Assembly: GCA_019695095.1 (NCBI GenBank)
Contig: JAIBAQ010000005.1
Location: 25,144 to 89,143, forward strand
Reading direction: 5' to 3'
DNA length: 64,000 nucleotides
From: Candidatus Hydrogenedentota bacterium
Lineage (GTDB): Bacteria; Hydrogenedentota; Hydrogenedentia; Hydrogenedentales; SLHB01
In this document: positions 24,770 to 46,987 of the stretch, one piece after another
How positions within the stretch are numbered: the first letter of the stretch is position 1
How the letters are laid out: the number at the start of each line of letters is the position of its first letter
The notes under the pieces: model-generated
The model's database searches: none
The model's input: the letters and a program-made list of their open reading frames with translations, nothing else
Told to the model about the DNA's origin: nothing
Position numbers and translations under genes: made by a program

Positions 24770-25777
24770 CTATTTGCCCCAACGGACTTTGTGGGCGCGT
24801 TCCGCGAGCCAGCCGCATTGGAGCGCCAGGCGATCCATCCATGCGGCGGCTGAGAACCCCGCGACGATGTTTCCTTGGGCCTGAATCTGGTAGGAAACGG
24901 TCGCAATGTGTTTTACGCCCACGGCGTAGTACAGGGCAGCCTCTTCGTAAAAGGATAGTGTACGGAATCGTTGATATTGATCCAACAAGATGTCCGTGCG
25001 CTTGGCCAGACGGTCGGGCTTCATGGTTGTGCGGATGCATAGGTTGGAGATGGCATAAGACAAGTCCTCAAGGTAGCACCCGTCGCCGGCGAACTCCAGA
25101 TCGACCACGGCCACCAACCGGTCGTTCTTGTAGATGAGATTGCCGCTGTGCCAATCGCCGTGAATGAGGCCCGTTTCAAACCGGCTTCGCTTTTCAAGGC
25201 TGAGCGCTTCACCCGCATCGCGAAGGAAGAGGGCAATTCGATTGCATTGCTCATTCAAGAGATCTTGATTGCCGCCTTCCATCTTTGCCATGTCGTACAA
25301 CTTTGCGAACGCCGCGCGAGGCACTTCGCTGAAACGCCACATCTGCGCGTCGCGCTCGGGACGCGGGAAATCACGGCAGCATTCATGGAAACGCCCTAGG
25401 GCCTGGGCCGAAATCGCGAGCGTGTCGCTGGACACCTGCATCGGTTCGCCTTCGACGAATTGCTGCAGTTCCAGCGCCCATGTATTCAACTCAACGATAC
25501 GCACCCCTTTGTTCGTGGGCTGCACACGGGCGACGGGAATGCCGTTTTTCAGCAGATGCTCCGAGAGCCGGTGCTGGAAGCGCAACGCGTCGAGCACATA
25601 GGGATCCCGTTTATACGTCTTGGCCAGGAACTGCCCGACCGCGGTATTCACCAACAGCTTTTGGTGCCGGCGTTGGTGCGCGCCTTCCAGCGGTTGGGGC
25701 CGGTCAACGCGTCCCAAGTCGTAGTGATCGCGTATTACCTGCGCGATGATGTCCAGCGAGTCGAGCTTGGTAGTCAC
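24770..25777 (-). CDS. Phosphotransferase-family kinase (APH / homoserine-kinase-II-like)
   Basis: Brenner and catalytic motifs LIHGDWHSGNLIY and VVDLEFAGDG. Its start overlaps the upstream acylase stop by 4 bp (atga). Confidence 0.65.
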   Translation of the reverse strand: MTTKLDSLDIIAQVIRDHYDLGRVDRPQPLEGAHQRRHQKLLVNTAVGQFLAKTYKRDPYVLDALRFQHRLSEHLLKNGIPVARVQPTNKGVRIVELNTWALELQQFVEGEPMQVSSDTLAISAQALGRFHECCRDFPRPERDAQMWRFSEVPRAAFAKLYDMAKMEGGNQDLLNEQCNRIALFLRDAGEALSLEKRSRFETGLIHGDWHSGNLIYKNDRLVAVVDLEFAGDGCYLEDLSYAISNLCIRTTMKPDRLAKRTDILLDQYQRFRTLSFYEEAALYYAVGVKHIATVSYQIQAQGNIVAGFSAAAWMDRLALQCGWLAERAHKVRWGK

Positions 25778-30646: not shown

Positions 30647-31912
30647 ATGTTGAAAGCGCATCATCGTTGTTATCTGGCAGCCTTCCTGCTCGACTTTGCC
30701 GTATCGTCCGGATTTACGGCGTTTCCGTTCTTCATCTTTGACCACCTTGGGGGCGATGCCCGCATGTCAGGATGGATATCGGCGATTCAATCCGCGTGTT
30801 ACGGGGCCGTATGCATCCTCTCGTCGACTTTTGTCGGCCGTGCGCGAAACGGATTGATCTGGGCACAAATAGGAAGCTTGGGATATGCCCTCATTTTCCC
30901 GGCTGCGATACTTTTCCGGAATCCGATCATCATCGCGGCCATGACGATTGCAGGCGTCACGTGCATGGCCTTGTTCTGGCCGGCCCTTCAGTCCTGGATC
31001 GGTTCAGTGCCGGATCTTCGCTTACGCTCACGCCGCATTGCGCACTACAACATTTCGTGGAGCCTGGGTCTTGCCACTTCCCCGTTACTGGCCGGTCCTC
31101 TGTACGATATGCACTACTCCTTGCCGTTTGTGCTCGTGTTTGTGTCGGCACTGCTTTCGTTCGCTCTGGTGATGTCCTTGCCGCATGAGCTGTCTTACTT
31201 CGGCGCTGCCACGCCGGAGGACTTAAGCTCGCGCGCCGAGCACACCGCGATTAGCGAGGCCCACCTTCATTGCACGTGGCTGGCCAGCTTTGTAGGCTGG
31301 GCGATGGTGGGCGTGATGCGGTCGGTCTTTCCGAAGCGTGTTCACGAGCTGGCCGCTAACCACGATCTTGTTGTACTTTTCGGGAGCATGTCTTGGGAAC
31401 GCCTTAACCTGGGACCGGCCACTCAGACGTCGTGGTTGATCCTGATGCTGTACGCTTCGCGCGTCATAACGACGTTGGACATGGGACACCGGCATACGTG
31501 GCATCACAAGTTTCGAATACTCGTCGTCTGGCAGATTGCGGCCGCGTTGGCGTTTCTGGGACTGGGCATCTCCCACAGCCTGTTCGTGATGGCCATATGC
31601 TGCCTGATTATCGGAGCAAACGGGGCCGTTTCGTTCTTTGCCAGTCTGTATTACAGCGTTGCCAACCCCGCATTCAGGCACGGGCGAACCGCCATTCATG
31701 AGGGCATGGTTGGTGTGGGCGGATTCGTGGGTTCCGTGGCATTCGGTGAACTCGCGAGCAGGCTTGGCACGTCGTGGCCATTCGTGTATACGCCGGTATT
31801 TGTTGCGGTATGTCTGGCAGGGCAATGGCTTCTATTTCGTAGGGGCATGGAGAGACTTCACCGCTCACAGAGTGAGTTGGGAGACTCCGACTCGTCCCGA
31901 AACTGGACGTAA
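30647..31912 (+). CDS. MFS transporter
   Basis: About 12 predicted TM helices. MFS-like architecture of 421 aa. Confidence 0.65.
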   Translation: MLKAHHRCYLAAFLLDFAVSSGFTAFPFFIFDHLGGDARMSGWISAIQSACYGAVCILSSTFVGRARNGLIWAQIGSLGYALIFPAAILFRNPIIIAAMTIAGVTCMALFWPALQSWIGSVPDLRLRSRRIAHYNISWSLGLATSPLLAGPLYDMHYSLPFVLVFVSALLSFALVMSLPHELSYFGAATPEDLSSRAEHTAISEAHLHCTWLASFVGWAMVGVMRSVFPKRVHELAANHDLVVLFGSMSWERLNLGPATQTSWLILMLYASRVITTLDMGHRHTWHHKFRILVVWQIAAALAFLGLGISHSLFVMAICCLIIGANGAVSFFASLYYSVANPAFRHGRTAIHEGMVGVGGFVGSVAFGELASRLGTSWPFVYTPVFVAVCLAGQWLLFRRGMERLHRSQSELGDSDSSRNWT

Positions 31913-31999: not shown

Positions 32000-33601
32000 A
32001 TGCGTTCCGTCATTTCCTTTTTCACCGCCGTGCTTCTGTTGTCCGTTTCCGCCGTTGCGCAAGGGGGCATGGTTTCCATCTCCAAAGAGAAGTTTCTGGA
32101 CAAGTGCAAGGGTGCATGGGCGGGCCAGATGATAGGCGTATGCTATGGCGCGCCGTACGAATTCGTGTCCAACGCCAAGCCCATTACCGACCCCATGAAG
32201 GAATGGAAGCCTGACCGCATCGAAGGCTCGATCGGGCAAGATGATCTGTATGTCGAGATGACGTTTCTCAAAGCACTCGAGGACTATGGTCTTGGGATTT
32301 CCTACGAGCAGGCGGGGAAAGCGTTTGGCGAATCCAAGTACGATTTGTGGCACGCGAACTACTTTGGACGCGAGAACATCCGCAGAGGCATCATGCCACC
32401 AATGTCGGGACATCCTTTGTACAATCGGCACGCGGACGATATCGATTTTCAGATTGAGGCTGACCTGTTTGGCATTCTTTGCCCGGGGTTGCCGCACGAG
32501 TCCAACCAGTTATGCGACATCTTCGGCCGGATCATGAACTACGGTGATGGGTTGTACGGAGGCATGTTCGTGGCGGGCATGTATACGGCAGCATATTTCG
32601 AAGACAACGACGTCAACAAAGTGATCCAGGCAGGATTGGCGTGCATTCCAAAAGACTCCGAATTTCACCGGTGCATCTCTGACGTTGTTGCCTGGCACAA
32701 AGAGAACCCCGGCGACTGGTTGGCCACATGGAAGAAGATTGAGGAGAAGTGGCAGGACGACGTGGATTGCAGTCCCGGAAATGTGTTCAACATCGATGCG
32801 AAATTGAACGCGGCCTACATCGTCATGGGATTGGTCTACGGAGAAGGCGACATGACGAAGACCGTCGAAGTCTCGACGCGTTGCGGTCAAGATGCCGACT
32901 GCAACCCATCCAATGCAGCGGGGGTACTGGGTTGCATGAAGGGATTCGCCGCGCTCGGCGATCACTTCACGGGTGGCATCCCTGCGATGGGCGACACGAA
33001 GTTTGCTTTTACGGACTACTCTTTTAATTCGCTCATCCCCGTGTCGCAGCGCATCACGGAGAACATAATCCAGAGCGTGGGCGGTCAGATTACGGACAAG
33101 ACTTATGAAATACCGCTGCAACAACCGTCTGAGCCAATCGTTGTGGAACAGTGGGTTCACCAGAAGGAGATGCTGTCGCAGGCTATATCTCAGACGGAGT
33201 TGAGTCTGTGGAATCCGGCGTGGCGTGTCGTAGCCTGCGGGACTGACATGGAGCCGGGTATACACGGCAGAGAATACGGCCGCACCAACGTACTTGTTCT
33301 GCATCCCGTTGACGAGAAGACACCGGCGGTGATGACAGCCAGCTACAAGGTTGCGTCAAGTGGCAGTCCGAAGCTTGTGGTGGACGCAGCCTCCGACAAA
33401 CGCGGCAACTTCGCGCTGCGCATCCTCGTCAACGGCCAGCCGATGATCGAAGAGCCGATCGACACCAAGGGTGAATGGAAGACGGTCACCGTGGATTTGA
33501 TGCCCTACACGGGCAAGACGATTGACGTGCGCGTGGAAGTGTGCGCGACGGGATGGTCGTTTGAGGCCGCATACATCGCGAAAGCGGCCTTTGAATCCTA
33601 G
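32000..33601 (+). CDS. Secreted ADP-ribosylglycohydrolase-family protein with C-terminal extension
   Basis: Signal peptide MRSVISFFTAVLLLSVSAVAQG. ARH-family motifs (KGAWAGQMIGVCYGAPYEF, DDIDFQIEADLFG, GQDADCNPSNAAGVLG). About 150 extra C-terminal residues. Confidence 0.7.
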   Translation: MRSVISFFTAVLLLSVSAVAQGGMVSISKEKFLDKCKGAWAGQMIGVCYGAPYEFVSNAKPITDPMKEWKPDRIEGSIGQDDLYVEMTFLKALEDYGLGISYEQAGKAFGESKYDLWHANYFGRENIRRGIMPPMSGHPLYNRHADDIDFQIEADLFGILCPGLPHESNQLCDIFGRIMNYGDGLYGGMFVAGMYTAAYFEDNDVNKVIQAGLACIPKDSEFHRCISDVVAWHKENPGDWLATWKKIEEKWQDDVDCSPGNVFNIDAKLNAAYIVMGLVYGEGDMTKTVEVSTRCGQDADCNPSNAAGVLGCMKGFAALGDHFTGGIPAMGDTKFAFTDYSFNSLIPVSQRITENIIQSVGGQITDKTYEIPLQQPSEPIVVEQWVHQKEMLSQAISQTELSLWNPAWRVVACGTDMEPGIHGREYGRTNVLVLHPVDEKTPAVMTASYKVASSGSPKLVVDAASDKRGNFALRILVNGQPMIEEPIDTKGEWKTVTVDLMPYTGKTIDVRVEVCATGWSFEAAYIAKAAFES

Positions 33602-33620
33602 CCAAGCCAGGACGTGTGAA

Positions 33621-34931
33621 TTAGGGGCGTGCGCTCTTGAAGTACGCTTCGGCGGACGCACCAAGCCATGCCACCTGTTCTATCGCGTCGGCTGAGCGTT
33701 CCGCACCATTCGTTTCGCGGACCTGTTGACCGAATCTCTGCGCGCATTCCCGAAATGAAGGTTCTTCGACGACTCGTTTGAGCGCCTGCGCCAAGGCGTA
33801 TCCGCTTATTTTGCGGGGCTTGGGTGCAGCCAGGCAAAAGCCATGACGCACCGCGTGGCGAACCACAAGCTCTTGCTCGAGATGGGCCGGCACGGCCACC
33901 ATGGGCACACCGGCGGCGAGACCTTGGTACATCGTGCCGTTGCCTCCGTGGTAGACCATTGCGGCGCAATGCCGGAGAATGTCTCCTCCGTGAGCGAACT
34001 CGGCAAAGCGAAAGTTTGCGGGGGCCTGTTGCATGGTGTCTTTGCTGACTTGACCACCCGTAGTGACCAGGAATCGATACGGAAGCTTGCCCAACGCTTC
34101 GTAGGTACGATTCAAGAACGTATCGAAAATGCCAGTCGACCCCATGGACACGTAGATATTGGGCGTACCGTCGTCTAGTTCATCCATCCATTCCGGGGGC
34201 GGCGCGGGATGATCGAATAGGATGGGGCCGACCGTATGGTAATGCGGGCAACGCGGCGACGGATCATACAGCGTGGGGAGATCGGGAGAGAGAATCGGAA
34301 TAGAGCATAGCAGTCGCATGGCATTGACCGGCTTGACGCCGTGGCGTTTGTACACCCTACGCCGCATGGGCTCCAGGTTCCAACGGTCCCACGAACGCAG
34401 GTGCATGCGGTAGTACGGATTCGAGTTGATGTGATCGAGGAAGTAGGCGCCCTGCACACAAGCAACGGGGATTCCGGTGATGTAGGCGGAGGTGCTGGCA
34501 GACACCGAACTGTCGCCGACGACAATGTCCGGTTTCTCCCGCCGGATGATCTCGACGTGGGACTCAATGATTTCGTGAAGCGGCGCCCAACGCGAAACAA
34601 AGGTCAGGTCGATCGATGTCTTGAACCAGCCGTGCTTGATAAACCTGTCCCACACGTACGGGTGATTGGGTTCCGGCGCGACGACGTGCCGAAAATCCGC
34701 CTGCCTCACCAGGCTCATCTTGGAACGTGGAGTAGACGCATCAACCCCCACGAAGAACACTTCGTGACCACGCGCCCTGAGGACTTTGGCAATTTCGATA
34801 GGGCGAACCGTGTGAGCCAGCACGTAGCTCAAGGGGATAAACATGACCTTGAGGCGGCGGCCCGGATTGGCACGGGCGGAAGTGGTATCGCTATCGACCG
34901 CTGATGATCTGGCAGCTAACGCAGATTTCAT
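33621..34931 (-). CDS. Glycosyltransferase family 1, MGT/UDP-glycosyltransferase type (GT-B); alternative start at 34844 (MFIPLS)
   Basis: MFIPLSYVLAHTVRPIEIAKVLRARGHEVFFVG N-terminal acceptor domain. A C-terminal UDP-sugar binding region (HGGNGTMYQGLAAGVPMVAVPAHLEQ). Convergent with the ARH gene, with 20 bp between stops. Confidence 0.7.
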   Translation of the reverse strand: MKSALAARSSAVDSDTTSARANPGRRLKVMFIPLSYVLAHTVRPIEIAKVLRARGHEVFFVGVDASTPRSKMSLVRQADFRHVVAPEPNHPYVWDRFIKHGWFKTSIDLTFVSRWAPLHEIIESHVEIIRREKPDIVVGDSSVSASTSAYITGIPVACVQGAYFLDHINSNPYYRMHLRSWDRWNLEPMRRRVYKRHGVKPVNAMRLLCSIPILSPDLPTLYDPSPRCPHYHTVGPILFDHPAPPPEWMDELDDGTPNIYVSMGSTGIFDTFLNRTYEALGKLPYRFLVTTGGQVSKDTMQQAPANFRFAEFAHGGDILRHCAAMVYHGGNGTMYQGLAAGVPMVAVPAHLEQELVVRHAVRHGFCLAAPKPRKISGYALAQALKRVVEEPSFRECAQRFGQQVRETNGAERSADAIEQVAWLGASAEAYFKSARP

Positions 34932-35000
34932 GAAACGTCCGTACTGATATGCCTTGATGCCGATTCGGCAGGCTGTAAATGGATCCGATTATTCCGCGGT

Positions 35001-38000
35001 TCAGGCGTGAATGTTGGCCTCTCGCTCGCGCACGGCCCTTCGAGGTTGAGCCGGCGAAAGAGCGTCCAGCGCTGCCCGGACCTGGATTGCAAGTTCTTTG
35101 GCGTTGGGATCTATAAGCATCGTGATATGGTTGCCCGGTGCTGAGGCCACATCGACGGGTTGCGTAGAATATCGCTTCCAGCCGAGCGTCGGATCTCCGA
35201 AAAGACGACGCAACAGACCTGAACGGCGCGCCAGCGAGAAGGAATCCGCCCAAACATAAGGCAAGCCGCCCAAAACGGCGCGCCAATTCTGGCGTAAGGC
35301 CCGCCAGAACATGACTATTGTGTGCTGCTTGGCTCCGCGCGGAATCGAAGTGAAGAGCTCGCGCGTGTGTACGAATACCACTTTGCCGTCGAACACCGGC
35401 GGGGCATATTTGACGGCGGCGTTGCTCGTCATCTTGACGTTTTCCACCAGACCGTGAATGGCTCCGGGGCCCGAATTCGGAGGCACAAACCCAACCTTCT
35501 TCAACGAATCCAACACGGCCTCGTATTGTTCGTCAACAGGCAGGCGCTTGAGCGTCGAGTACGAAATGTCAAAACGTGTCTGGAAGAAGAATTCAACCAG
35601 CATGAGAACGCACGCCAGCCAGAATGCATCGTCGGCAGTAGCCTGACATGCTGAATAGACCTGCGCTGCCTTCTGGGCGGGCAGCGGGGCAATGCTGTCC
35701 AACAGCACAACTGCGCCGACTTCGCAGCCTTCAGCCTTAAGCAGACGCGCAAGTTCGAGCGCGACGACACCACCGGAAGAGTGGCCGCCCAAGTAGTAGG
35801 GACCTTCGGGCTGCACTGCCCTAACCGCGCTCACGTAGTGCCGCGCCGTCTCCTCGATGGAATCGAACACAACGCGCGCGCCGTTGACACTGGGCGCTTG
35901 TATGCCATAGAAGGGGCGGTCTTCGCCCATGTGCTTGGCCAAGGCCATGTAGCAGAACACGGTGCCCGGAGCAGGATGCACGCAGAAGAACGGTGGTTTC
36001 GAACCGCGCGGTTGAATCGGCACAATTACGGGAACCGGTTCGTCGGTGGCCTGATTGCGCAGCACGGCCGCCATCTGCTCGATTGTTGGCGATTCGAAGA
36101 GAGCCGTCGGAGGGACAAGACGGTCGAACTTCTGAAGGATCTGATCCATCAGATACACGGCGGACAGTGAATGACCGCCCAGATCGAAGAAGTTGTCCGT
36201 GACTCCAATAGGCCGGACATCGAATACCTGCTCCCAAATGTGCACGAGTTCCAGTTCGACCGCATCGCGCGGGAGCACAACCGGGCCACGCATATTTCGG
36301 TCTTCGCGTTCCGGCTGCGGCAGGGCTTTTAAGTCCACCTTGCCATTGGGGGTCATCGGGAGTTCGTCAAGCACGACGAACGCGGATGGAATCATGTACT
36401 CAGGCAGCAGTTTCTTAAGCTGCGATTTCAGTTCGCCATTGAACGACTTGTTGCGTTCGCGCGGAACGATGTACGCGACCAGTTGACGGTCTTGCGGAAC
36501 GTCTTCGCGCGCCATGACCACCGTTTCGGCGACATCCGGATGATCCTGCAAGACCGATTCGATCTCGCCGAGTTCGATGCGGTACCCGCGAATCTTCACT
36601 TGATGATCGGTTCGCCCGATAAACTCTAGGTTACCGTCCATGCGGTACCGTACGATGTCGCCTGTTCTGTAGAGGCGCTCGCCGGGGATCTGCGCGAACG
36701 GGTTGGGCACAAACCGATCTTCGGTGAGTTCAGGGCGGTTCAGATAGCCGCGGGCCAATCCCACGCCGCCGATATAGAGTTCACCGGCGACGCCAAATGG
36801 GGCGGGCCGCATGCGGTCGTCCAATACAAATACCTGCATATTGGCAATTGGCTTGCCAATGGCGGGCGCTTCCGTGCCGTCGCCGTCGTACTGTGCCGCG
36901 GTCACGTAAACGGATGTCTCCGTCGGACCGTATGCGTTGATGAAGCGGCGGCTGGCAGCCCATTGCGCGGCCAGTGCAGGCGGACAGGCTTCTCCGCCGA
37001 CGATAACCGTCTTCAAATCGGGCAAATCTTCCGGCGACAAGGTCTTCAGATACGACGGAGTCAGCAAGACCACGTTCACATTGTGTTGCTGAAGCAGGCC
37101 GCGCAATTCGCGAGACGAGGTGACCGTCTCTTTGCTGGCGAGGCACAAAGTGCTTCCGGCGCAGAGTGTGGGGAAAATCTCCATCGCCGACGCGTCGAAA
37201 CTCATCGAAGCGAACTGCAGCACGCGGTCGCCGACGCTGAGTTTCGCGAGGTCGCGTGCATTCAGAGCCATGTTTGTTAGGCCGCGATGTTCGATCATCA
37301 CGCCCTTGGGGAGGCCCGTGGAACCCGAGGTATAGATAACGTATGCAAGATTCGTTGAAGACGCGCCGGGCTCCGGATTTCGACCATCGCATTGCGCAAT
37401 TGCAGCCCAATCCGAATCGATGCACACCACGCGGGCTCCGCTCTTGGGCAGGGCCGACAGAATTCCGCTCTGGGTGACAAGTACCGGAGTCTTTGTGTCG
37501 TCGAGGAAGAACTTCAAGCGTTCGTGGGGATAGCTGGGGTCCATGGGCACGTAGGCGCCGCCCGCCTTCATGATGCCCAGTATTCCCACAATCATCTCGG
37601 TCGAACGCTCCACACACAATCCAACGACCGTTTCAGAAGTGACTCCAAGAGTTCGGAGATAATGAGCGAGGCGATTGGCGCGCTCGTTCAACTCCGCGTA
37701 CGTCGTCCGTTCTTCGCCATACAGTAGGGCGATGGCATCGGGATGCTTGGCTGCCGTTTCTTCGAACAGACCGACCACGGTACGGTCCAAGGGCAGGCCG
37801 ACGGCCGTATCATTGAACTCCACAACGAGACGACGAAGTTCGTCTTCTCCCACCAGCGAGACTTGGGAGACCGCCAATTCCGGATTCGCGATCATCGCAT
37901 CCAGGACATTGTCGATGTGACGAATGGCGAGAGTCTGTAGGGCGTCATCAAAATAGGCCCGATTGAAATCGAAGCCAATTCCGAAACTCTCGTTCACGGG

Positions 38001-39338
38001 ATTCTCAAAGACGCTCAGCGTCAGAGGTTCCGTTCCATAGCCGGACTGAATCCAGCGCACTTCCGATGCCGTTCCGGCGAATTCGGGCATGTTGAAGGCC
38101 AGGAAGTTCAGCAGAACATCCTGCGCGTGCATGTGCATGAGGTTATGGAAGTAGTACCGGCTATTCTTCAGCGAGGCGGCCGCTTGCTCGCCGACTTTGG
38201 CAACCAGCGACTGAAGGGTGTCGTCGTCGTCAATATCCACCGTAAGGGGCAAAACCCCGATAAAGATGCCTGGTGTCATCTTCTGAGCACCGCTGCGGCG
38301 GTTGTGGAACGGCATGCCGATCGATATCCGTCTGCTTCCGCTGAGGCGATGCAGGTAGGCAACAAGCGCCGCCGCAAACACGTTGAACACCGCCGCGTGC
38401 TGTGTCTTGGCAGCGACGGGGTCCTGTTCGGCGAGGGCTTTGATGCGCAAGGTTCGTTCGATGCCGAGATTGTGCCGCACCTTGCTGACGGTGCCCAGTT
38501 GCCGGACGATCGTTTTGCCGTAGAGGTTGATTGGCTCCACCTTACGCGCGAGTTGTTCGCGCCAGTAGGCGCGTTCGGAAGCGTCGGAGGCGTCTCCCCT
38601 GTGCGAGCGCTCGTATTCCAGATAGTCTTTGAACGGGGGCAGGCACGGCACGCTGTCGAGGGTCCCAGCCATCGCCGCTTCGTACAGATGAGACATGTAT
38701 CCCGTCAGGATGACAAAGGAAAACGCATCGCTGATGATGTGGTGCTGATTCAAGTACCAGCCGTAGAGTTCATCGCCCAGTTTTAGGAGAACAGAGTCGA
38801 ACAAGCGCTTGCCCATGTCGTGAACGACTTGGCAGCGCTCCGTACACCACTCCTGAGTGGCAATCCGATAGTCGGAAGCGCCGGTAAGGTCGACGCACTC
38901 CAGATCGAAGACCATGCTATCGAGCACGCGTTGCTGTGGGGCGCCGTCTACGACTTCGATGATGGTTCTTAGGGCATCGGTATTGTCGACCGCCTTCTGA
39001 AAGGCTCGCGCAAACAGGGCTGGGTCGAGGGCCTGCGGGATGTAAAGGACCATCGCGTTGTTGTAGAGGGGAATAGTGGGTTGCAGCTTCTGTCCCAGGT
39101 AGAAGACGAGCTGCGCACGGGTCAGATTCGAGCGCTCGTAAATATCCAAGCTACCTTCTCCCAGAATCCCCCTAAATGTAGGCGCATATACCGTGTCTTT
39201 GTGACGCGGCAACCAAGTTTCCCAGTATTTTTCCGCCGCGAGCGCGTCGATACGCCCGTGCATTGTCTGTTGCCCCCCCGTCACGCAAAGAGACTCCAAC
39301 ACGGTTCTGGTTCCGGAAGAGCCAAAGCCGCGTGCCAA
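35001..39338 (-). CDS. Single-module non-ribosomal peptide synthetase: C - A - T(PCP) - TE
   Basis: C domain with HHIISDAFS (an HHxxxD variant). A-domain core motifs [17 protein letters not shown] (A3), FDASAME (A4), NAYGPTE (A5), YRTGDIVRY (A8) and [20 protein letters not shown] (A9). PCP [20 protein letters not shown]. Confidence 0.9.
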   Translation of the reverse strand: [1445 protein letters not shown]

Positions 39339-39453
39339 ATTCCGTAGAAGTTATTTTGCCCTGAATGCAACATCGAAATGTTTGCCGTTCCAACCGTACA
39401 TAATGTCAAGTTAGATTCTCCAGAGCAAGCCGGGAGATTTTTCTCGCGCCCGA

Positions 39454-40602
39454 TCATCCTGGCAGTCCAGTTTGACGCTCTGAAAGAACTGTCTCATAGA
39501 TATCAAGAACTTGCCTTGCCTGCACGTCGAGGGAGTAGCGGTCAATAGCGCATTTCCTCGCCGCCCGTCCCATTTCTCGTTCCTTGGCCCGGTCGTCACA
39601 CAGGCTCGACAGACAAGCATACAGGGAATCCGGGCCTCCGTCATAGACAAAACCGTTGACGCCGTCATCCACGATTTCCCGCAGCATCCCCCGGTTGGCG
39701 ACGATGGCAGGTTTTCCCATGGCCATTGCCTCGCGCACCGCGCGGCAGGTCCCGTCGCTTCCGGGTACCAGGAAGACCTTAACACTAAACGCTTTGAGCA
39801 TGCCCACATAGTTTTCGCCGGACACATATCCAGGGAAATGGACGCGATCCGTCAGATTCAATTCACGGACCGGTTGCTTTCCAACCGTTTCCTGATTCGT
39901 GCCTCGCCCGACGACGATAGCGTGGGCATTCTTCCCTGCATCGACAAGCATACGAATTGCACGAAAAAAGTCTTCATACCGCCGATGAGTCTGCATCCGG
40001 GCGACAATTCCTATTACGAACGCATCCGGCGGAATACCCAGCCATCGGCGTCCGTCGGGGACTTCACGAGCCGGATCGAAACGCTCCACATCAACCGCAC
40101 CTGGAACTACTTGCATAGACCGTTCGGGATACCCGAAGGTTTCAAGGTCATGTGCCAGCGCAACTTGCGAAGGCTCCAGGATTCTGGCCGCGGAAAAGAC
40201 GAGGCGTCGCTGGCGCTTGGGAGACCGAAAACCCTCGCCCTCGTAACTGGAGCGGATAATCGGTATGCCAAGTGACTGAGCGGGCCATCGGGCAATCCGG
40301 TGGTCGTTGTCGAGATGGCAGTGAAGAAGGTCGTAGCGGTTTGCCTGCAGATACCTTCCGAGAGCCATGCTATCGAGTAGGTTCCTGAGGGGGTGCCTGT
40401 GTTTCCCCATGCGGAACCGGAGTATAGGCTCAATTCCGCGGTCGCGAGCCGTTTCCACCATGGTATGGGGCACGCCTTCCGGCAGAGGGGGACAGGCGAA
40501 ATCGGCGTCCACGCCGAGCTTACGCAAGGACAGGCATAGGTTCAGTGCGGGTTCGGCCGGTCCAGTCCATTTCGCGTTGCTGAAAAGGTGAAGTACCCTC
40601 AT
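39454..40602 (-). CDS. Glycosyltransferase, GT4 family (GT-B, Pfam Glycos_transf_1)
   Basis: MRVLHLFSNAKWTGPAEP N-terminal GT4 motif. A C-terminal EX7E-like region (GTCRAVREAMAMGKPAIVAN). Confidence 0.75.
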   Translation of the reverse strand: MRVLHLFSNAKWTGPAEPALNLCLSLRKLGVDADFACPPLPEGVPHTMVETARDRGIEPILRFRMGKHRHPLRNLLDSMALGRYLQANRYDLLHCHLDNDHRIARWPAQSLGIPIIRSSYEGEGFRSPKRQRRLVFSAARILEPSQVALAHDLETFGYPERSMQVVPGAVDVERFDPAREVPDGRRWLGIPPDAFVIGIVARMQTHRRYEDFFRAIRMLVDAGKNAHAIVVGRGTNQETVGKQPVRELNLTDRVHFPGYVSGENYVGMLKAFSVKVFLVPGSDGTCRAVREAMAMGKPAIVANRGMLREIVDDGVNGFVYDGGPDSLYACLSSLCDDRAKEREMGRAARKCAIDRYSLDVQARQVLDIYETVLSERQTGLPG

Positions 40603-40635
40603 ACACGTAGCACTGTATACAGGCGACTCAAGAAG

Positions 40636-43600
40636 CTACACGCCATTCATTTTGACGCTGACCAATTGGGACACGCCCCGCTCTTGCATCGTAACGCCGT
40701 AGAGCGCATTGGCCTTGGCCATTGTCTGCTTGTTGTGCGTAATCACGATGAACTGGCTCTGGTCCGTGAATTCATCGATGATACCCAGGAACCGTCCGAT
40801 GTTGGCGTCGTCCAGCGGGGCATCGACCTCGTCGAGCACGCAGAACGGGCTGGGCTTTGCTTTAAAAATACTGAACAGCAATGCCACGGCCGTCATCGCG
40901 CTCTCACCGCCCGACAACAGCGAGATGGAAGTCGGCTTTTTGCCGGGAGGCCGGGCTTCGATTTCGATGCCTGACTCAAGCGGATCGTCTTCGTTCAGAA
41001 GATAGACGCGCGCCTGCCCGCCATTGAACAACCGGCGGAAGAACGCGCTGAAGTTCTCCGCGATTCGGTTGAATGTATCGAGGAACATTTCGCGAATTCG
41101 TTTGTCGCTCCGCTCGATGACGCCGAGCAATGCATCCTTGGCCTGATGGAGGTCTTGGGATTGGGCCAAGAGGAATGCGTGGCGCTGTTCCAGGGCTTCG
41201 TATTCTTCGATGGCCATGAGATTCACTTCGCCCATGCGCTGGAGTTTGCCGCGAATCTCGTTCACGAGGTTTGTTCGCGTATCGGCGTCGTACTCGTCGG
41301 TTCCGACCTGTTCCTCGGTCAGCGACGCCAGGGCAACGTTGTATTCGGAAATGATGCGTTCCTGGAAGAAACCGACACGGTCCTCGTTCTGGCGCAGCGC
41401 CAATTCGGTACGGTGGACTTCCGACTGCGAGGCGCGCGCTTCTTCGCGCAAATGCTTCAGTTCCTTCTCGATGGTCTCGCTTTCGTCGAGGAGGGTTTGC
41501 AGTTGGTTCTGGGCGTCTACGGCCTTCTTGCTCGCTTCTTCGCGCGTCTCCGACAACGCAACGGAGCGTTCGACGTGCAAGGCGATGTTTTGCTCGATGT
41601 CGGTTCGCTCTTGGTTCAACTGCTCGATGATGCCGTCGCGGCGTTCTGCTTCGGACATAGCATCTGCGCGTTCCCGCAGCAGCCGCTGCTTTTCGCGCTC
41701 AATCTCTTCGAGACGTTGAGCCAGTCCTGCCTGCTTCAAGCGGATGTCCGACAATTCACTCGTGAGCACGCTGAGCCGCTGCCGCGCGTGGGAGGCAGCG
41801 TCCTGCGCTTCGGCGAGTTCCTGCTGCAGCAATTCATCGTCGTTAATCGATGCGTCCGCTCGCGCAAGCGCTTCCTGGCGTTCCGAATCAAGTTGATCGC
41901 GCCGCGCGCGGAGTTCGTCGCGCTCACGGTCAAGCGCCTGGCCGCTTTGCACCATGCTGTCCAACTCGGCGGCCTGCCGCGCATGGTCAACAGAAATCAC
42001 GTTCAGTTCCTGCCTGCACGTCTTCAAGCGGCCGTCAATTGCCGAGATTTCCTCCGCATAGCGGGCGATGTTTTCGGTCGTTGTCTTGCGGCGCTCCGCC
42101 AGTTCAACGATCTTCTTTTCCGCATACGCAACGCGCTTCTCGAGCTCGCCGATTTCCGCGCTGCGGCCCAACAACCCGCGGCTCTCGTGCTTGGTACGTC
42201 CGCCCGTGACAGCACCCGCCGACGACACAACTTCGCCGTCCAACGTCACCAATCGAGGATGGTTTGCACAGGAACGCGTGATACGGATGGCGTCATCGAG
42301 GGTATTCACGATAATGGTGTTGTGCAGCAGGTATTCAACAACGTGCTGCAAGCGCGCCTCGTAGCGCACGAAATCGATGGCCTGACCCACGACACCGGGC
42401 TTGCCGTCGTCATAAGGTGCATTGGAATCGCCTCGATCGGCGCGGCCATGCCCACGCACCGTGTCCAAAGGCAGGAACGTGACGCGTCCCGCGCCGGTGC
42501 GTTTGAGGAACTCGATGGCGCTTTTTGCCGCTTCGGCATTTTCGACGACAACATTGTTAATGTTGCCGCCGAGCGCAGCTTCGATGGCCTGCTCATACTC
42601 CTTATCGGACGATAGGAGGTCACCCACGGGACCGATAATGTCCCGAACGTCCATCATGTTCTTGGAGGCGGCCTTCATCACGGCGCGCACGCCGATGGCG
42701 AAGCCTTCGTAGTTGTCGCGCAGTTCGCGCAACGAATTCAGGCGGGCTTCAAGGCTGCTCTTTTCTTCGCGACTGGTGCGCCACTGTTCGTCTACGTCAC
42801 GCAGCACATCGGTGTCGCGCTGTCTGGCAGTGACCGTCTGTTCACGGTCATGCTCCAACGCCGCCAACGCCTGTTGTTTTTCGGATTCCGCGCGACGGGC
42901 CGTTTCCAATGAGGCAAGCAGTTCCTCGTGACGCGAAGCCACCGTGCGTTGACGTTCGTAGATTGACGAAAGCTGTCGATCGACGCCTTCGATAGTCTCG
43001 TGCAGCTTTTCGAGCGCCGTTTGTGCGCGGGCGCGATCCGTCACGCGCTCGGTATGCCGCGCGCGCATCGCCTCCAGGCGCGCCTCCAAATCGGCAACTT
43101 CAGCGGCGGTCTGCGCGTGGGCTTCAATCTTTTGGGCGATTTCGCTATTCGATCCTTCTATTGCCGAGCCGACTTCGCCCGCCTGGCTGCCGGTATTGGC
43201 GACTTGCTCGTCGAGCGCAGCAGCCCGTTGAATGAGGGCTTCCTTTTCTTGCGCCGCCGCTTCGATCTTCTCGCCGCAGTACTCGATCTGTTGGCGCTGA
43301 AGCGCAATCTGGCGCTCGATCTTCTCCATCTCGGATTCAATCTCGTAGACGCCCTGCTGGCGGGCGAGCCGTACGCGTTCGACTTCCAGACGGTTCAGGT
43401 TGACTTCTTCGTGGCGCGCCTCAAGACCCGAGATACGAGTTGAGACTTTCTCGTAGCGGTCTGTTGAATCGGCAAACTGGTGCTTGAGAATTTCGATCTC
43501 GGAGGTAAGGCGGACGAACTCGAGCCACGCCGCTCGAATTTCGATCTCGCGGAGTTGATCGCTCAGTTCGCGGTACCGAATCGCCGCGTTGACTTGACGT

Positions 43601-44217
43601 TTCAGCGAACGCATCTGACGTTCCACTTCGGCGATGATATCGCCCAAGCGGAGCAAGTTTTGTTCGGCGGACTCCAAGCGGCGAACGGCCAGGCGCTTGC
43701 GGTTCTTGTATTTGATGATCCCCGCGGCTTCCTCGAAGATGAACCGTCTGTCTTCCGGCTTTGAGCTCAGGATCATGTCCATCTTGCCCTGGCCGATCAT
43801 CGAGTAGGCCTGCGTGCCGATACCGGTATCCATGAAGAGTTCATGGATGTCTTTCAGGCGGCACGCGGCCTTATTGATGAAGTATTCGCTTTCGCCGGAG
43901 CGATAGATGCGCCGGGTAATCTGGACTTCGGAGAAGTCCACTGGAAGGCTCGAATCCGAGTTGTCGAAAGTGACCGAGACTTCGGCCATGCCCAAAGGAT
44001 GCCGGTTCTCGCTTCCATTGAAAACGATGTCCTGCATGTTGGAACCGCGCAGTTCTTTTGCGCGCTGTTCCCCCAGCACCCATCGTAGGGAATCGAGAAT
44101 GTTGCTTTTGCCGCACCCGTTCGGTCCGACCACGGCGGTAACGCCGGGATCGAGTTTCAAGATGGTCCGATCCGCAAAAGACTTAAAGCCAATCAGCTCG
44201 AGCTGCTTAAAGTACAT
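40636..44217 (-). CDS. smc: Chromosome segregation protein SMC
   Basis: N-terminal Walker A FKSFADRTILKLDPGVTAVVGPNGCGKSNILD. Long coiled coils, a hinge, and C-terminal signature LSGGE plus Walker B (FCVLDEVDAPLD). 1193 aa. Confidence 0.9.
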   Translation of the reverse strand: MYFKQLELIGFKSFADRTILKLDPGVTAVVGPNGCGKSNILDSLRWVLGEQRAKELRGSNMQDIVFNGSENRHPLGMAEVSVTFDNSDSSLPVDFSEVQITRRIYRSGESEYFINKAACRLKDIHELFMDTGIGTQAYSMIGQGKMDMILSSKPEDRRFIFEEAAGIIKYKNRKRLAVRRLESAEQNLLRLGDIIAEVERQMRSLKRQVNAAIRYRELSDQLREIEIRAAWLEFVRLTSEIEILKHQFADSTDRYEKVSTRISGLEARHEEVNLNRLEVERVRLARQQGVYEIESEMEKIERQIALQRQQIEYCGEKIEAAAQEKEALIQRAAALDEQVANTGSQAGEVGSAIEGSNSEIAQKIEAHAQTAAEVADLEARLEAMRARHTERVTDRARAQTALEKLHETIEGVDRQLSSIYERQRTVASRHEELLASLETARRAESEKQQALAALEHDREQTVTARQRDTDVLRDVDEQWRTSREEKSSLEARLNSLRELRDNYEGFAIGVRAVMKAASKNMMDVRDIIGPVGDLLSSDKEYEQAIEAALGGNINNVVVENAEAAKSAIEFLKRTGAGRVTFLPLDTVRGHGRADRGDSNAPYDDGKPGVVGQAIDFVRYEARLQHVVEYLLHNTIIVNTLDDAIRITRSCANHPRLVTLDGEVVSSAGAVTGGRTKHESRGLLGRSAEIGELEKRVAYAEKKIVELAERRKTTTENIARYAEEISAIDGRLKTCRQELNVISVDHARQAAELDSMVQSGQALDRERDELRARRDQLDSERQEALARADASINDDELLQQELAEAQDAASHARQRLSVLTSELSDIRLKQAGLAQRLEEIEREKQRLLRERADAMSEAERRDGIIEQLNQERTDIEQNIALHVERSVALSETREEASKKAVDAQNQLQTLLDESETIEKELKHLREEARASQSEVHRTELALRQNEDRVGFFQERIISEYNVALASLTEEQVGTDEYDADTRTNLVNEIRGKLQRMGEVNLMAIEEYEALEQRHAFLLAQSQDLHQAKDALLGVIERSDKRIREMFLDTFNRIAENFSAFFRRLFNGGQARVYLLNEDDPLESGIEIEARPPGKKPTSISLLSGGESAMTAVALLFSIFKAKPSPFCVLDEVDAPLDDANIGRFLGIIDEFTDQSQFIVITHNKQTMAKANALYGVTMQERGVSQLVSVKMNGV

Positions 44218-44232
44218 GAAATTCCTGAATAC

Positions 44233-45015
44233 CTAGGCGACGTAACGCGCCACACGTTGAATGGAAACCGCACGCCCTGTCGAATCGTCCGCTTCGATCA
44301 CGACACCGTTCAGCCCTGGGCGTTCATTCGATATGGTATGTTCCACCGGCATGCCGGTCAGAAACTTGTGAATAATCTTATCTCGTTCCACCCCAATCAC
44401 CGAATCCATTGGCCCGGTCATGCCGACGTCGGTGATATAGGCCGTTCCTTGGGGGAGTATCCGTTCGTCGGCAGTCTGCACGTGCGTGTGCGTACCCACC
44501 ACGGCCGTGCAAAGGCCGTCGAAATACCACCCCAAGGCGATCTTCTCCGCCGTCGCCTCAGCATGAACATCGACCAGAACAACCTGGACTTCCCGGCGTA
44601 ACGATTCCAGTTCGCTCCGCCCGACCGTGAAAGGACACCGCACCGGGTCCATGAACACACGGCCCAAAAGACTCACAATTCCAATAGACCGGCCGTCGTT
44701 CAGCCGCACGACCGTGCTACCCTTGCCGGGCACGCCTTCCGGATAGTTGGCCGGGCGCACCACCGTGCCAAAAGAATCCAGCGATGGAGCCAGTTCCTTC
44801 TTGCGCCACGTGTGGTTGCCCATCGTGATCGCATGAATGCCGCACCCAAGCAGTTCCCTCAGAATGGCCGGGGTCGCCCCCAGCCCGCCCGCGGAATTTT
44901 CACCATTGGCGGCAACGAAGTCAATCCGATGTTCGGCGCACAATTCCGGCAGCCATTTCTTGACGCACGTGCGCCCCGGTCCGCCGACAATGTCACCGAT
45001 GAAAAGTATACGCAT
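44233..45015 (-). CDS. ymdB: YmdB-like metallophosphoesterase (TIGR00282; 2',3'-cNMP phosphodiesterase)
   Basis: MRILFIGDIVGGPGR, GENSAGG, GNHTW, HAEATAEK and GTHTHVQTADERILPQGTAYITDVGMTGP are collinear with B. subtilis YmdB. Conserved synteny downstream of rny. Confidence 0.85.
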   Translation of the reverse strand: MRILFIGDIVGGPGRTCVKKWLPELCAEHRIDFVAANGENSAGGLGATPAILRELLGCGIHAITMGNHTWRKKELAPSLDSFGTVVRPANYPEGVPGKGSTVVRLNDGRSIGIVSLLGRVFMDPVRCPFTVGRSELESLRREVQVVLVDVHAEATAEKIALGWYFDGLCTAVVGTHTHVQTADERILPQGTAYITDVGMTGPMDSVIGVERDKIIHKFLTGMPVEHTISNERPGLNGVVIEADDSTGRAVSIQRVARYVA

Positions 45016-45026
45016 TCACCGACGGC

Positions 45027-46592
45027 CTACTTCGCCACTTCGGTGGCGCGGGTCTCGCGAATCACGGTCACTTTGATCTGACCCGGGTACGTCATTTCGC
45101 TTTCGACCTTCCGGGCCACGTCTCGCGCTAACTGCATCGCTTCGGCGTCGTTCATGCGCTCCGGACACACGGCGATGCGGATTTCGCGTCCTGCCTGAAG
45201 GGCATAGGACTTGTCAACGCCGGGGAATCCGTCGGCAATTTTTTCAAGTTGCTCCAGGCGCTTGATATACGTCTCGACGGTCTCGCGCCGGGCGCCGGGC
45301 CTTGCCGCGGACAATGCGTCGGCGGCCTGAACGATTACGGCCATCACCGAGGCTTGCTCCATTTCGTTGTGGTGCGCGCCAACGGCATTGGCAATCAATT
45401 CGTTTTCGCCGTACTTCTTGCAGAAGTCGTGCCCGATGAGGGCGTGCGACCCTTCGATTTCGTGGCTGACGGCCTTGCCCATATCGTGGATCAACGCGGC
45501 GCGCTTGGTCTCTGGGATGTTCAAACCCAGCTCCGCGGCCATGATTCCGGCAAGGTGGCAGACTTCAAGCGAATGCTTGAGCACGTTCTGACCGTAGGAC
45601 GTACGATAGCTCAAACGGCCAAGCAGGCGGACGATTTCCGGGTGCAGGCTGTGTACGTCGGCTTCCAGGCAGGCGCGTTCGCCGACTTCCTTGATGGTCC
45701 GGTTCATTTCCTCCTTGACCTTCTCGACGACTTCTTCGATTCGGGCAGGGTGGATGCGACCGTCTTGAATGAGACGTTCCAAAGCAATGCGCGCGGTTTC
45801 ACGGCGAACGGGATCGAAGCCGGACAGAATCACCGCTTCGGGAGTGTCGTCAATAATGATATTGATGCCCGTGGCGCTTTCGAGGGCGCGGATATTGCGA
45901 CCTTCGCGGCCGATAATTCGGCCTTTCATCTCGTCATTGGGCAGCGCAACCACGCTGACGGTGGTTTCGGCGACGTGGTCGGCGGCACACCGTTGAATGG
46001 CTTGACCGATGATCCACTTGGCTTTTTTGTCGGAATTCTCGATAAGCTCTTCTTCGATGCGCTTAAGGCGAAGTGCGGCGTCACGCCGGACTTCAGTTTC
46101 CAACTGATTGAAAAGTTCCTTTTTCGCCTCTTCAGCACTCATGCCGGAAATTATCTCCAGTTTTTGAGTCTGTTCGGCGACGAGAGTCTCCAAGCGTTCG
46201 TGACTTTTCGCCAAGGCGTTTTCGCGATTGGTCAGGTCACGTTCTTTTCCGCTCAGTTCATTGGCTTTGCGCTCGATGGCTTCAACGCGCTTGTCAACCT
46301 GCTCTTCCTTACCAAGAATGCGTTTCTCAAGTGCAACCAACTCTTTACGAAATTCGCGGGCCTCCCGCTCCGCTTCTTCACGTTGCGCAATTCGCTGCTC
46401 TTTGATGGTGGTGTTGGCGTCTTTAATGATCGAAGCGGCTTCGCGTTCCGCGTCCGAAATGGTTTGGGCGGCCTGACGGCGCGCTGCCCCCATGAGGTTG
46501 CGTCCCAAAATCCTGGCGCCCACGACGGCGAGCACCAGTCCAACGAAAATGCCAGCTCCGATCCACGCGTAAAACAGTGGATCATCGTACAT
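45027..46592 (-). CDS. rny: Ribonuclease Y
   Basis: Start refined to [23 protein letters not shown] (N-terminal TM) with a GGAGG RBS. Coiled coil, a KH domain ([23 protein letters not shown]) and an HD domain ([17 protein letters not shown]...LIHDMGKA). Confidence 0.85.
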
Positions 46593-46987
46593 GCGATTGG
46601 ACCTCCATCCTGGAAAGGATGTTTCTACCCGGTTTGGCGCCCCAGGAAGGATGGAGAACAAGAGAAGATATCGGAGCCGTTTTTGAACCTACTGTTAGAT
46701 ATGTACTTAGCGCAAACCATCCATGGCCCGCAAACACAACCCAACCATAGAAAATCCGCCGTAGCAGAGATTTAGGCTTATCCGACTATGTCCCATGCCT
46801 TGCCTCAGGACGTCCGAAGTAACAAGTACAGAATACAGATCTGAAATAACAGAGGGCAGTATAAGGAATATGTTAACGTGAAGTCAATCCAATAGATCCT
46901 CCTTTTAGCGCAATTCACCGATTGAGGGAGGATACCCTGGGGAGGTATAAACAAGTAGGGACTCGCAAAAACCAACCAAAATATGGT

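Follow-up and report, generated by a model that had tools for sequence, protein, structure and literature searches.

A one-module nonribosomal peptide synthetase and its linked GT1 glycosyltransferase in Hydrogenedentota: a candidate locus for glycosylated N-acyl amino acids

What can a nonribosomal peptide synthetase (NRPS) of a single module make, and which of the genes around it belong to its pathway? We took up this question for a 64-kb stretch of DNA from a Candidatus Hydrogenedentota bacterium (contig JAIBAQ010000005.1), called the window below, in which nearly all open reading frames (ORFs) of at least 90 aa were annotated by Pfam. Three consecutive ORFs are present on the minus strand at 33621-34931, 35001-39338 and 39454-40602, just as an initial annotation made from the letters had placed them, and they encode a GT1 glycosyltransferase, the NRPS and a GT4 glycosyltransferase. 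With a probability of about 0.5, we read the locus as a two-gene accessory module, NRPS and GT1, that sits at the 3' end of an rny-ymdB-smc-GT4 block in a subset of Hydrogenedentota and yields a glycosylated N-acyl amino acid. In kind, this NRPS-GT1 pair from a candidate phylum is unremarkable among orphan natural-product loci.

Domains of the single-module NRPS

The NRPS comprises one module with a starter-type condensation (Cs), an adenylation (A), a carrier (T) and a thioesterase (TE) domain, and is followed by GT1:

35001..39263, minus strand: NRPS, Cs-A-T-TE single module, 1420 aa from the ATG at 39263 (Pfam domains; 100% identical deposited protein)
37827..39128, minus strand: putative starter-type condensation domain, motif HHIISDAFS at 38727-38744 (match to RzmA-Cs; domain context of its relatives)
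36339..37766, minus strand: adenylation domain, code DAMLIGAVYK (gap-free alignment to GrsA PheA, 1AMU, residues 228-331)
36063..36248, minus strand: carrier (peptidyl carrier protein, PCP) domain, phosphopantetheine Ser in GGHSLS at 36162-36179 (PF00550, 50.6 bits)
35094..35993, minus strand: thioesterase, Ser in GHSSGG at 35769-35786, Asp in VVLLDS at 35694-35711, His in GNHITM at 35118-35135 (PF00975)
33621..34931, minus strand: GT1-family GT-B glycosyltransferase using a nucleoside diphosphate (NDP)-sugar, 69 bp downstream of the NRPS (EryCIII-like_C and UDPGT Pfam)

Pfam recovers the five NRPS domains with E-values from 1e-13 to 1e-91 (residues counted from a TTG at 39338: Condensation 71-504, E 3e-58; AMP-binding 525-866, 4e-91; AMP-binding_C 925-1000; PP-binding 1031-1092; Thioesterase from 1116, 7e-24). 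The 1445-aa NRPS of the initial annotation is the ORF that opens at this TTG. The ORF exists, but its length is probably overstated: a deposited protein of a Candidatus Hydrogenedentes metagenome-assembled genome (MAG; P0001), 100% identical to the window NRPS, has 1420 aa and begins at the ATG at 39263, so the TTG is probably not the true start. All catalytic motifs of the NRPS are intact and conserved in its orthologs, and those singled out at the outset (HHIISDAFS, GHSSGG, and FDASAME at 37179-37199) were all located. The GC content across the locus, 0.57-0.58, is the same as that of its surroundings. An Rfam scan of the window found no RNA families. A promoter and terminator scan of 33000-41200 left the intergenic gaps without a terminator-like site and gave counts no higher than in shuffled sequence, and it is therefore uninformative on operon structure.

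The module appears to stand alone. Among the annotated ORFs of at least 90 aa in the window, Pfam found no second NRPS, polyketide synthase (PKS), carrier protein, fatty-acyl-AMP ligase or phosphopantetheinyl transferase, and a tblastn search with the four NRPS domains matched only the NRPS itself. The related loci, as far as their genes were called and searched, gave no partner NRPS, carrier protein or acyl ligase either, in agreement with the initial proposal of a stand-alone single-module enzyme.

The C domain begins about 45 aa from the N terminus of the NRPS, with no carrier domain upstream in cis. Its nearest solved structure is RzmA-Cs (7c1h, 7c1k, 7c1p; E ~3e-33), the lipoinitiation domain of rhizomide biosynthesis, which uses acyl-CoA donors (PMC7804268). 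Elongation C domains (Txo2, bacitracin) match it at 4e-26 or weaker, CDA-C1 at 6e-22, EntF at 2e-18 and the AB3403 C domain at 1e-5. Among the best 120 whole-protein matches, about 24 have C domains that are 33-40% identical (257-352 bits), the remainder being about 24% identical (at most 116 bits). Relatives were also drawn from an exhaustive HMMER search of 1.84 billion representatives, whose whole-protein ranking was confounded by multi-module NRPSs and was therefore re-scored per domain. A sharp score gap separates the clade of the window C domain (170-460 bits) from ordinary C domains (at most 115 bits).

The context of this clade is that of starter domains. Among 78 close relatives, 18 are N-terminal and 58 are directly preceded by a further C domain; in only 2 does a T domain come before, counted as such when a carrier-domain motif lies within 220 residues upstream. 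N-terminal members head initiation modules (Cs-A-T-E, Cs-A-T-C, Cs-A-T-C-A-T-TE). We rejected the view that the clade consists of DCL domains placed after epimerization (E) domains: the domains preceding the 58 tandem relatives are C domains carrying HHxxxDGWS, and none has the GHGRE motif. Both His and the Asp of the HHxxxDG motif are conserved in all orthologs of the window NRPS. With RzmA-Cs as the nearest structure and relatives that almost never follow a carrier domain, the starter reading given at the outset is supported, and on these comparisons we provisionally assign the window C domain to the starter (lipoinitiation) type. Together with the lack of a partner NRPS in the window and the related loci, this reading withstands the refuting conditions set for it in advance.

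Tandem C-Cs modules are common among the relatives (the 58 of 78 above, in proteins P0248-P0393). Icosalide synthesis uses such a tandem: its second C domain is of the starter type and attaches a beta-hydroxy fatty acid to the amine of the loaded Ser (PMC10510592). In-line lipoinitiation may be widespread.

For the A domain, alignment to 1AMU allowed the full Stachelhaus code to be read (D235 A236 M239 L278 I299 G301 A322 V330 Y331 K517), of which D235, A236 and M239 had been called correctly before. The A4-A5 segment finds its best matches in the Phe-activating TycA and GrsA, and we read the predicted substrate as a large hydrophobic or aromatic residue. NRPS orthologs are 50-53% identical in 10 other loci and 84-86% identical within the clade of the window, and they split into three classes by code:

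DAMLIGAVYK: window, L004
DAMLVGAVYK: L008
DASTIAAVCK: L001, L011, L013, L014
DASTVAAVCK: L002
DPLLEGAVCK: L003, L016, L026
DPCLEGAVCK: L007
DPMMEGAVCK: L024

DASTxAAVCK is what we take to be the classical Tyr code, which differs from the Phe code mainly by W239S. A full-text literature search for DAMLIGAVYK, DASTIAAVCK and DPCLEGAVCK found none of them, so the Tyr assignment draws on the Stachelhaus table and on the logic of W239S.

The GGHSLS carrier motif is conserved in all orthologs, and the Ser-Asp-His triad of the TE is intact, with an Asp-to-His spacing of 192 aa. The TE aligns over about 313 aa as against about 260 aa in its nearest relatives, and is thus some 50 aa longer. Its best matches in the PDB are ordinary NRPS thioesterases, 7crn/7dxo and the AB3403 TE (4zxh), at E ~1e-23 (8e-24 for AB3403); the Pks13 TE is found at a weaker level (E ~8e-11).

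The glycosyltransferases and their neighbourhoods

GT1 scores above the Pfam cut-offs for UDPGT (45.0 bits; cut-off 19.5) and EryCIII-like_C (58.2 bits; cut-off 31.7). Against the MGT model TIGR01426, it reaches 96.8 bits where the cut-off is 260, with only the C-terminal half matched. The enzyme had been called an MGT-family GT1: the family holds, while the subfamily does not. With CalG1, SnogD, OleD and YjiC as its nearest solved relatives, we class it by profile as a natural-product-type enzyme outside the MGT subfamily.

A GT1 ortholog lies directly after the NRPS in all of the related loci that have enough downstream DNA (11/11), and the two proteins diverge alike, each being 50-53% identical across sister-clade loci. 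The NRPS-GT1 pairing proposed at the outset is thus supported, and GT1 is the sole supported tailoring enzyme of the locus. Two tandem GT1 genes follow the NRPS in L002 (14220-16753) and L024 (8594-11245). In a neighbour-joining tree, the second copies group together, apart from the first, suggesting that some lineages may add two sugars. The tree is otherwise star-like, and strict orthology of window-clade and sister-clade GT1 cannot be read from it.

The GT1 family is wider than the NRPS family and is not tied to NRPSs, since homologs occur in other contexts. In Halomonas organivorans (L019 1075-11266, JBHLVM010000004.1), a protein 54% identical to the window GT1 is encoded after a 2517-aa highly reducing PKS (KS-AT-DH-ER-KR-ACP) and a class I/II pyridoxal phosphate-dependent enzyme (PF00155), with a sulfatase-family gene upstream, in what looks like an uncharacterised glycosylated amino-lipid pathway. 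In another Hydrogenedentes MAG (L022 9282-15242), the gene of a GT1 paralog overlaps an upstream esterase gene by 4 bp and is followed by a fusion of a PlsC-acyltransferase and an alpha/beta-hydrolase, then by an alginate-export-type porin; this segment is possibly a glycolipid operon. Other homologs adjoin a GT2 gene or stand alone. These genomic contexts point to lipid-like acceptors.

GT4 has a different history. It closes a block of genes that is conserved in Hydrogenedentota-type contigs and, in the window, lies next to the NRPS:

39454..40602, minus strand: GT4 glycosyltransferase, last gene of the rny-ymdB-smc-GT4 block (Pfam)
40636-44217, minus strand: smc (Pfam)
44233-45015, minus strand: ymdB (Pfam)
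45027-46661, minus strand: rny (Pfam); rny, ymdB and smc together span 40636..46661

The order rny-ymdB-smc is kept in all related loci. In the window, GT4 lies 33 bp downstream of smc; the two are apparently co-transcribed, and GT4 is conserved at housekeeping level. GT4 exceeds the Pfam cut-offs for Glycos_transf_1 (87.1 bits) and Glyco_transf_4 (48.0 bits) and stays below the NCBIfam cut-offs for all equivalogs, those for MshA, BshA and exopolysaccharide (EPS) enzymes being far out of reach; its nearest solved relatives are MshA and BshA (E ~1e-11).

When metagenome contigs were searched with a GT4 alignment, 62 loci (L025-L086) came up, with GT4 orthologs at 40-68% identity. Of these, 44 extend at least 1.5 kb upstream of GT4, and 35 of the 44 have smc directly before it. 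Where at least 1.5 kb of downstream DNA is available, any of the 318-aa hydrolase gene described below, the NRPS or GT1 occurs in 4 of 38 loci and the NRPS in only 2 of 38. Even where GT4 is at least 59% identical to that of the window, the cassette is absent from 15 of 19 loci. The genes after GT4 in loci without the NRPS are variable and often on the opposite strand. GT4 is 66-72% identical across the sister-clade NRPS loci and 82-87% within the clade of the window; across the sister-clade loci, this conservation resembles that of SMC and YmdB and exceeds that of NRPS and GT1.

Since GT4 is mostly found after smc without an NRPS and is conserved like SMC and YmdB, we regard it as the last gene of a conserved block with a function of its own. 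On this comparative evidence, GT4 is unlikely to be dedicated to the NRPS pathway; its function appears to be independent of the NRPS, and it is at most an optional contributor to the product. The initial annotation had GT4 as a tailoring enzyme and the three genes as one cassette. The first claim is left unsupported by a synteny that is independent of the NRPS, an outcome named in advance as refuting it, and the second falls with the rarity of GT4 plus NRPS beside the frequency of GT4 plus smc.

Two loci without an NRPS were seen to carry other genes after GT4. In L028 (112-3733), GT4 is followed by a hydrolase-like gene and, without an intervening NRPS, by a GT1 (50% identity), while L038 (2080-4150) has GT4 and the hydrolase-like gene only; the hydrolase-like genes show 39-45% identity. 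The slot after GT4 is variable and modular.

Loci related to that of the window share the gene order rny-ymdB-smc-GT4-[318-aa gene]-NRPS-GT1, with a second GT1 in some. NRPS orthologs were found only in Hydrogenedentota-labelled contigs and in two MAGs whose labels are apparently wrong. These two, with relatives of the NRPS C domain, are labelled 'uncultured Nitrospiraceae' (L014, CAZWDH010000099.1) and 'uncultured Oscillospiraceae' (L018, CAZDPQ010000089.1). L014 holds a whole GT4-hydrolase-NRPS-GT1 locus and L018 a 77-residue match only, which points to mis-binning or mislabelling. Further features of the window and of the related loci are:

32000..33601, plus strand: ADP-ribosylglycohydrolase-family protein, 533 aa, convergent with GT1 (PF03747, 101.8 bits)
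30647..31912, plus strand: major facilitator superfamily (MFS) transporter, in the same direction as the ADP-ribosylglycohydrolase gene and 87 bp upstream of it (PF07690, MFS_1)
25774-28038, minus strand: penicillin-amidase (Ntn-hydrolase) family protein, about 5.6 kb beyond GT1
L001 8897-9853, L002 8888-9838, L003 8970-9926: 318-aa gene between GT4 and NRPS (316-321 aa)
L007 9009-9965, L024 3449-4414: the same gene (316-321 aa)

The 318-aa gene encodes a divergent alpha/beta-hydrolase with the GxSxG elbow G[SA]SGGGSAAFYFG; Pfam and NCBIfam hits are marginal and indicate no clear family. A profile of this hydrolase matches neither the NRPS TE nor the esterases beside the GT1 paralog to a significant degree. 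By tblastn it is absent from the window, where a gap at 39264-39453 takes its place, and it is also missing in L004, L008 and L017, the three closest relatives. In the clade of the window, its absence goes with an NRPS that is extended by 38 aa at the N terminus and has another A-domain code; this clade either lost the gene or never had it.

The ADP-ribosylglycohydrolase gene is present in 8 of 11 NRPS loci (window, L002, L003, L004, L007, L008, L013, L014) and in none of the 38 GT4-only loci, and is perhaps part of that variable segment. The encoded protein has about 200 extra C-terminal residues, and no sequence relative of it was found in the PDB. In the comparisons run, the MFS gene is next to the locus of L004, the closest relative in the clade of the window, only and is absent from the sister-clade loci; with its place on the opposite strand, this leaves the initial suggestion of an exporter unsupported. 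Further downstream of GT1 are ppk1 and the penicillin-amidase-family gene; the contigs of the relatives stop short of the latter. The penicillin-amidase family includes PvdQ-type acylases, which remove N-acyl chains from NRPS products.

A proposed route and its nearest known systems

In the pathway that we propose, the A domain would adenylate one large hydrophobic amino acid, as predicted from DAMLIGAVYK, and load it onto the T domain. The starter C domain would then N-acylate the alpha-amine of the loaded amino acid from an acyl-CoA or a free-standing acyl carrier protein; here the type of the domain is what the comparisons support, and the donor and chain length are our proposal. The TE would free the N-acyl-aminoacyl unit, most simply by hydrolysis, and GT1 would attach a sugar derived from an NDP-sugar, for example at an acyl 3-hydroxyl or at the carboxylate. 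This presumed order of steps would lead to a small amphiphile, an N-acyl amino acid that carries a sugar. A product of this class had been predicted with two tailoring glycosyltransferases; the class remains plausible, and one of the two enzymes is supported.

This reading, NRPS plus GT1 making a glycosylated N-acyl amino acid, draws on the intact and conserved motifs, on a C domain of apparent starter type, on a 64-kb window free of partner genes, on the unbroken linkage of GT1 to the NRPS and on GT1 relatives in lipid and amino-lipid contexts. Since sister clades change the A-domain code and add the 318-aa hydrolase, we infer that the head group varies between lineages.

Several observations weigh against it. 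The Gly of the C-domain motif is Ala in the window and Met in the orthologs P0012 and P0015, a Gly-to-Ala change that is also found in other members of the clade. The position of the RzmA gate residue R148, four residues past the motif Asp, is Phe in the window and F, Q, V or I among the orthologs. In RzmA, a bulky gate residue favours short acyl chains (PMC7804268). By this rule the Phe makes the 'lipo' part of the product uncertain, and a long acyl chain is not assured. The unusually long lid-side region of the TE suggests that release may not be simply hydrolytic. GT1 homologs of similar identity are found without any NRPS, and with L028, which has a GT1 and no NRPS, they mean that GT1 could act on something else. 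Finally, synteny across the entire region is inherited, and adjacency alone therefore says little about a link in function.

The unimodular Cs-A-T-TE architecture recurs and is not new, SwrW being a characterised example. SwrW, the serrawettin W1/serratamolide synthetase of Serratia, is a single-module C-A-T-TE enzyme whose product, a small amino-lipid, combines a fatty acid with a single amino acid (PMC7767323), and by Pfam the window NRPS likewise has one module with these domains on one polypeptide. The two differ in that SwrW joins Ser to 3-hydroxydecanoate and has a TE that turns the product into a cyclic dimer, whereas the window has a hydrophobic code, a GT1 that is always attached and a longer TE. 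The Ser code is DVWHLSLIDK, and DAMLIGAVYK does not agree with a Ser specificity of the SwrW type.

Among the C-domain relatives are two further unimodular Cs-A-T-TE proteins. P0056 is encoded alone beside RidA and TPR genes. In L087 (10001-21610; P0327), whose C domain is 41% identical to that of the window, the cluster has no glycosyltransferase and contains an ATP-grasp enzyme, an ornithine/diaminopimelate decarboxylase, a free PCP, a carbamoyltransferase, two acyl-CoA dehydrogenases and MbtH.

RzmA and HolA (rhizomide, holrhizin) share with the window NRPS a C domain at the N terminus; theirs transfers an acyl group from acyl-CoA to the amine of the amino acid loaded first (PMC7804268). 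RzmA differs in being a seven-module NRPS; its Gly145 and Arg148 are Ala and Phe in the window, and overall similarity is distant. The icosalide synthetase has the tandem C-Cs arrangement seen in most relatives of the window C domain, whereas the window C domain stands at the N terminus of a protein with a single module.

GT1-decorated N-acylated amino-acid or peptide cores are known from mycobacterial glycopeptidolipids, hassallidins and myxotyrosides. These cores differ in being multi-residue peptides or in having no known biosynthetic genes. Myxotyrosides, which are rhamnosylated N-acyl tyrosine derivatives, resemble the product expected from the sister clade with the Tyr code. A literature search found no described Hydrogenedentes NRPS and no pathway of a single-module NRPS with a glycosyltransferase, and we know of no characterised pathway that pairs a one-module Cs-A-T-TE NRPS with a GT1.

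Alternative pathways and significance

That GT4, NRPS and GT1 form one pathway to an N-acyl amino acid bearing two sugars, with the MFS transporter as its exporter, we consider unlikely. The genes are co-directional, with short gaps that hold no terminator-like site, and each NRPS locus found sits directly downstream of a GT4 ortholog; this nearness, however, is not reciprocal. GT4 occurs mostly after smc and without the NRPS (2/38 with it, and 15/19 lacking the cassette at 59% identity or more), its conservation (66-72%) follows that of its housekeeping neighbours and not that of NRPS and GT1, and the MFS gene runs on the opposite strand and was seen in the clade of the window alone.

The same site of insertion can be read in another way. 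GT4 is universal in the lineage, and NRPS, GT1 and hydrolase are add-ons at one position, which would fit the decoration of a GT4 product. GT4 and/or GT1 would then make a sugar-bearing acceptor, a glycolipid or other sugar conjugate, onto which the TE might off-load the (acyl-)aminoacyl unit by trans-esterification or aminolysis. The Pks13 TE, which transfers mycolate to trehalose, offers an analogy and is among the PDB matches of the window TE (~8e-11), itself about 50 aa longer than its relatives. L028, with GT4, hydrolase and GT1 and without the NRPS, is in keeping with such a scheme, and MshA and BshA, the nearest solved relatives of GT4, make small sugar conjugates. We nevertheless hold acyl transfer to be improbable: the matches of TE and GT4 that suggest it are weak and generic, no acceptor is indicated, and the best matches of the TE are ordinary NRPS thioesterases. 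There is, in our estimate, a comparably small chance that the NRPS-GT1 segment, with the hydrolase in sister clades, is a lineage-specific add-on that decorates the conserved GT4 product into vertically inherited (lipo-)aminoacylated glycoconjugates, possibly envelope lipids. The head group would then have been swapped at least three times through changes in the A-domain code, of which there are a hydrophobic, a Tyr-like and a Pro236/Glu299 type.

A split pathway, in which an aryl, acyl or peptidyl donor reaches the module from a carrier protein or NRPS elsewhere in the genome, has a slimmer prospect still. EntF, AB3403 and ObiF1 share the C-A-T-TE architecture, and the AB3403 TE is among the best TE matches (8e-24); their modules need a free-standing A domain and a carrier protein that delivers the donor (PMC10510592). 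The related Cs-A-T-TE enzyme of L087 adjoins a stand-alone PCP and acyl-CoA dehydrogenases, and the MAG is incomplete, so that distant partners are possible. However, neither the 64 kb nor the called genes and searches of related loci contain a free-standing A domain, an aryl carrier, 2,3-dihydroxybenzoate genes, or any other A domain, carrier or NRPS. The EntF C domain is a far weaker match (2e-18) than RzmA-Cs (3e-33), and against the EntF model NF007605 the NRPS scores 531 bits where the cut-off is 2400.

Least probable of all is that the NRPS works iteratively like SwrW. The donor would then be a 3-hydroxyacyl thioester, the TE would join two acyl-aminoacyl units and close them into a cyclic lipodepsipeptide of the serratamolide type, and GT1 would be accessory or unrelated. 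The single C-A-T-TE module shared with SwrW (PMC7767323) and the capacity of starter C domains for beta-hydroxy fatty acids, as in icosalide (PMC10510592), speak for this reading; the loading of Ser by SwrW, the hydrophobic code of the window and a GT1 linkage (11/11) that favours a glycosylated product speak against it.

For genome mining, the locus carries a lesson: a flanking glycosyltransferase can be a gene of a housekeeping block, and adjacency alone is no ground for cluster membership. Should the small chance of a decorated GT4 glycoconjugate prove true, the segment would serve to make lipids with a structural or physiological role, in contrast to an antibiotic cluster of sporadic occurrence. 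If instead the NRPS and GT1 make a glycosylated N-acyl amino acid, as we prefer to read them, they would define a minimal route to such compounds, with one NRPS module and one GT1. To our knowledge, glycosylated N-acyl amino acid amphiphiles have no characterised NRPS pathway, and the host phylum is without known chemistry. Three A-domain codes on one scaffold would then represent a natural head-group series within Hydrogenedentota, useful for biosurfactant engineering.

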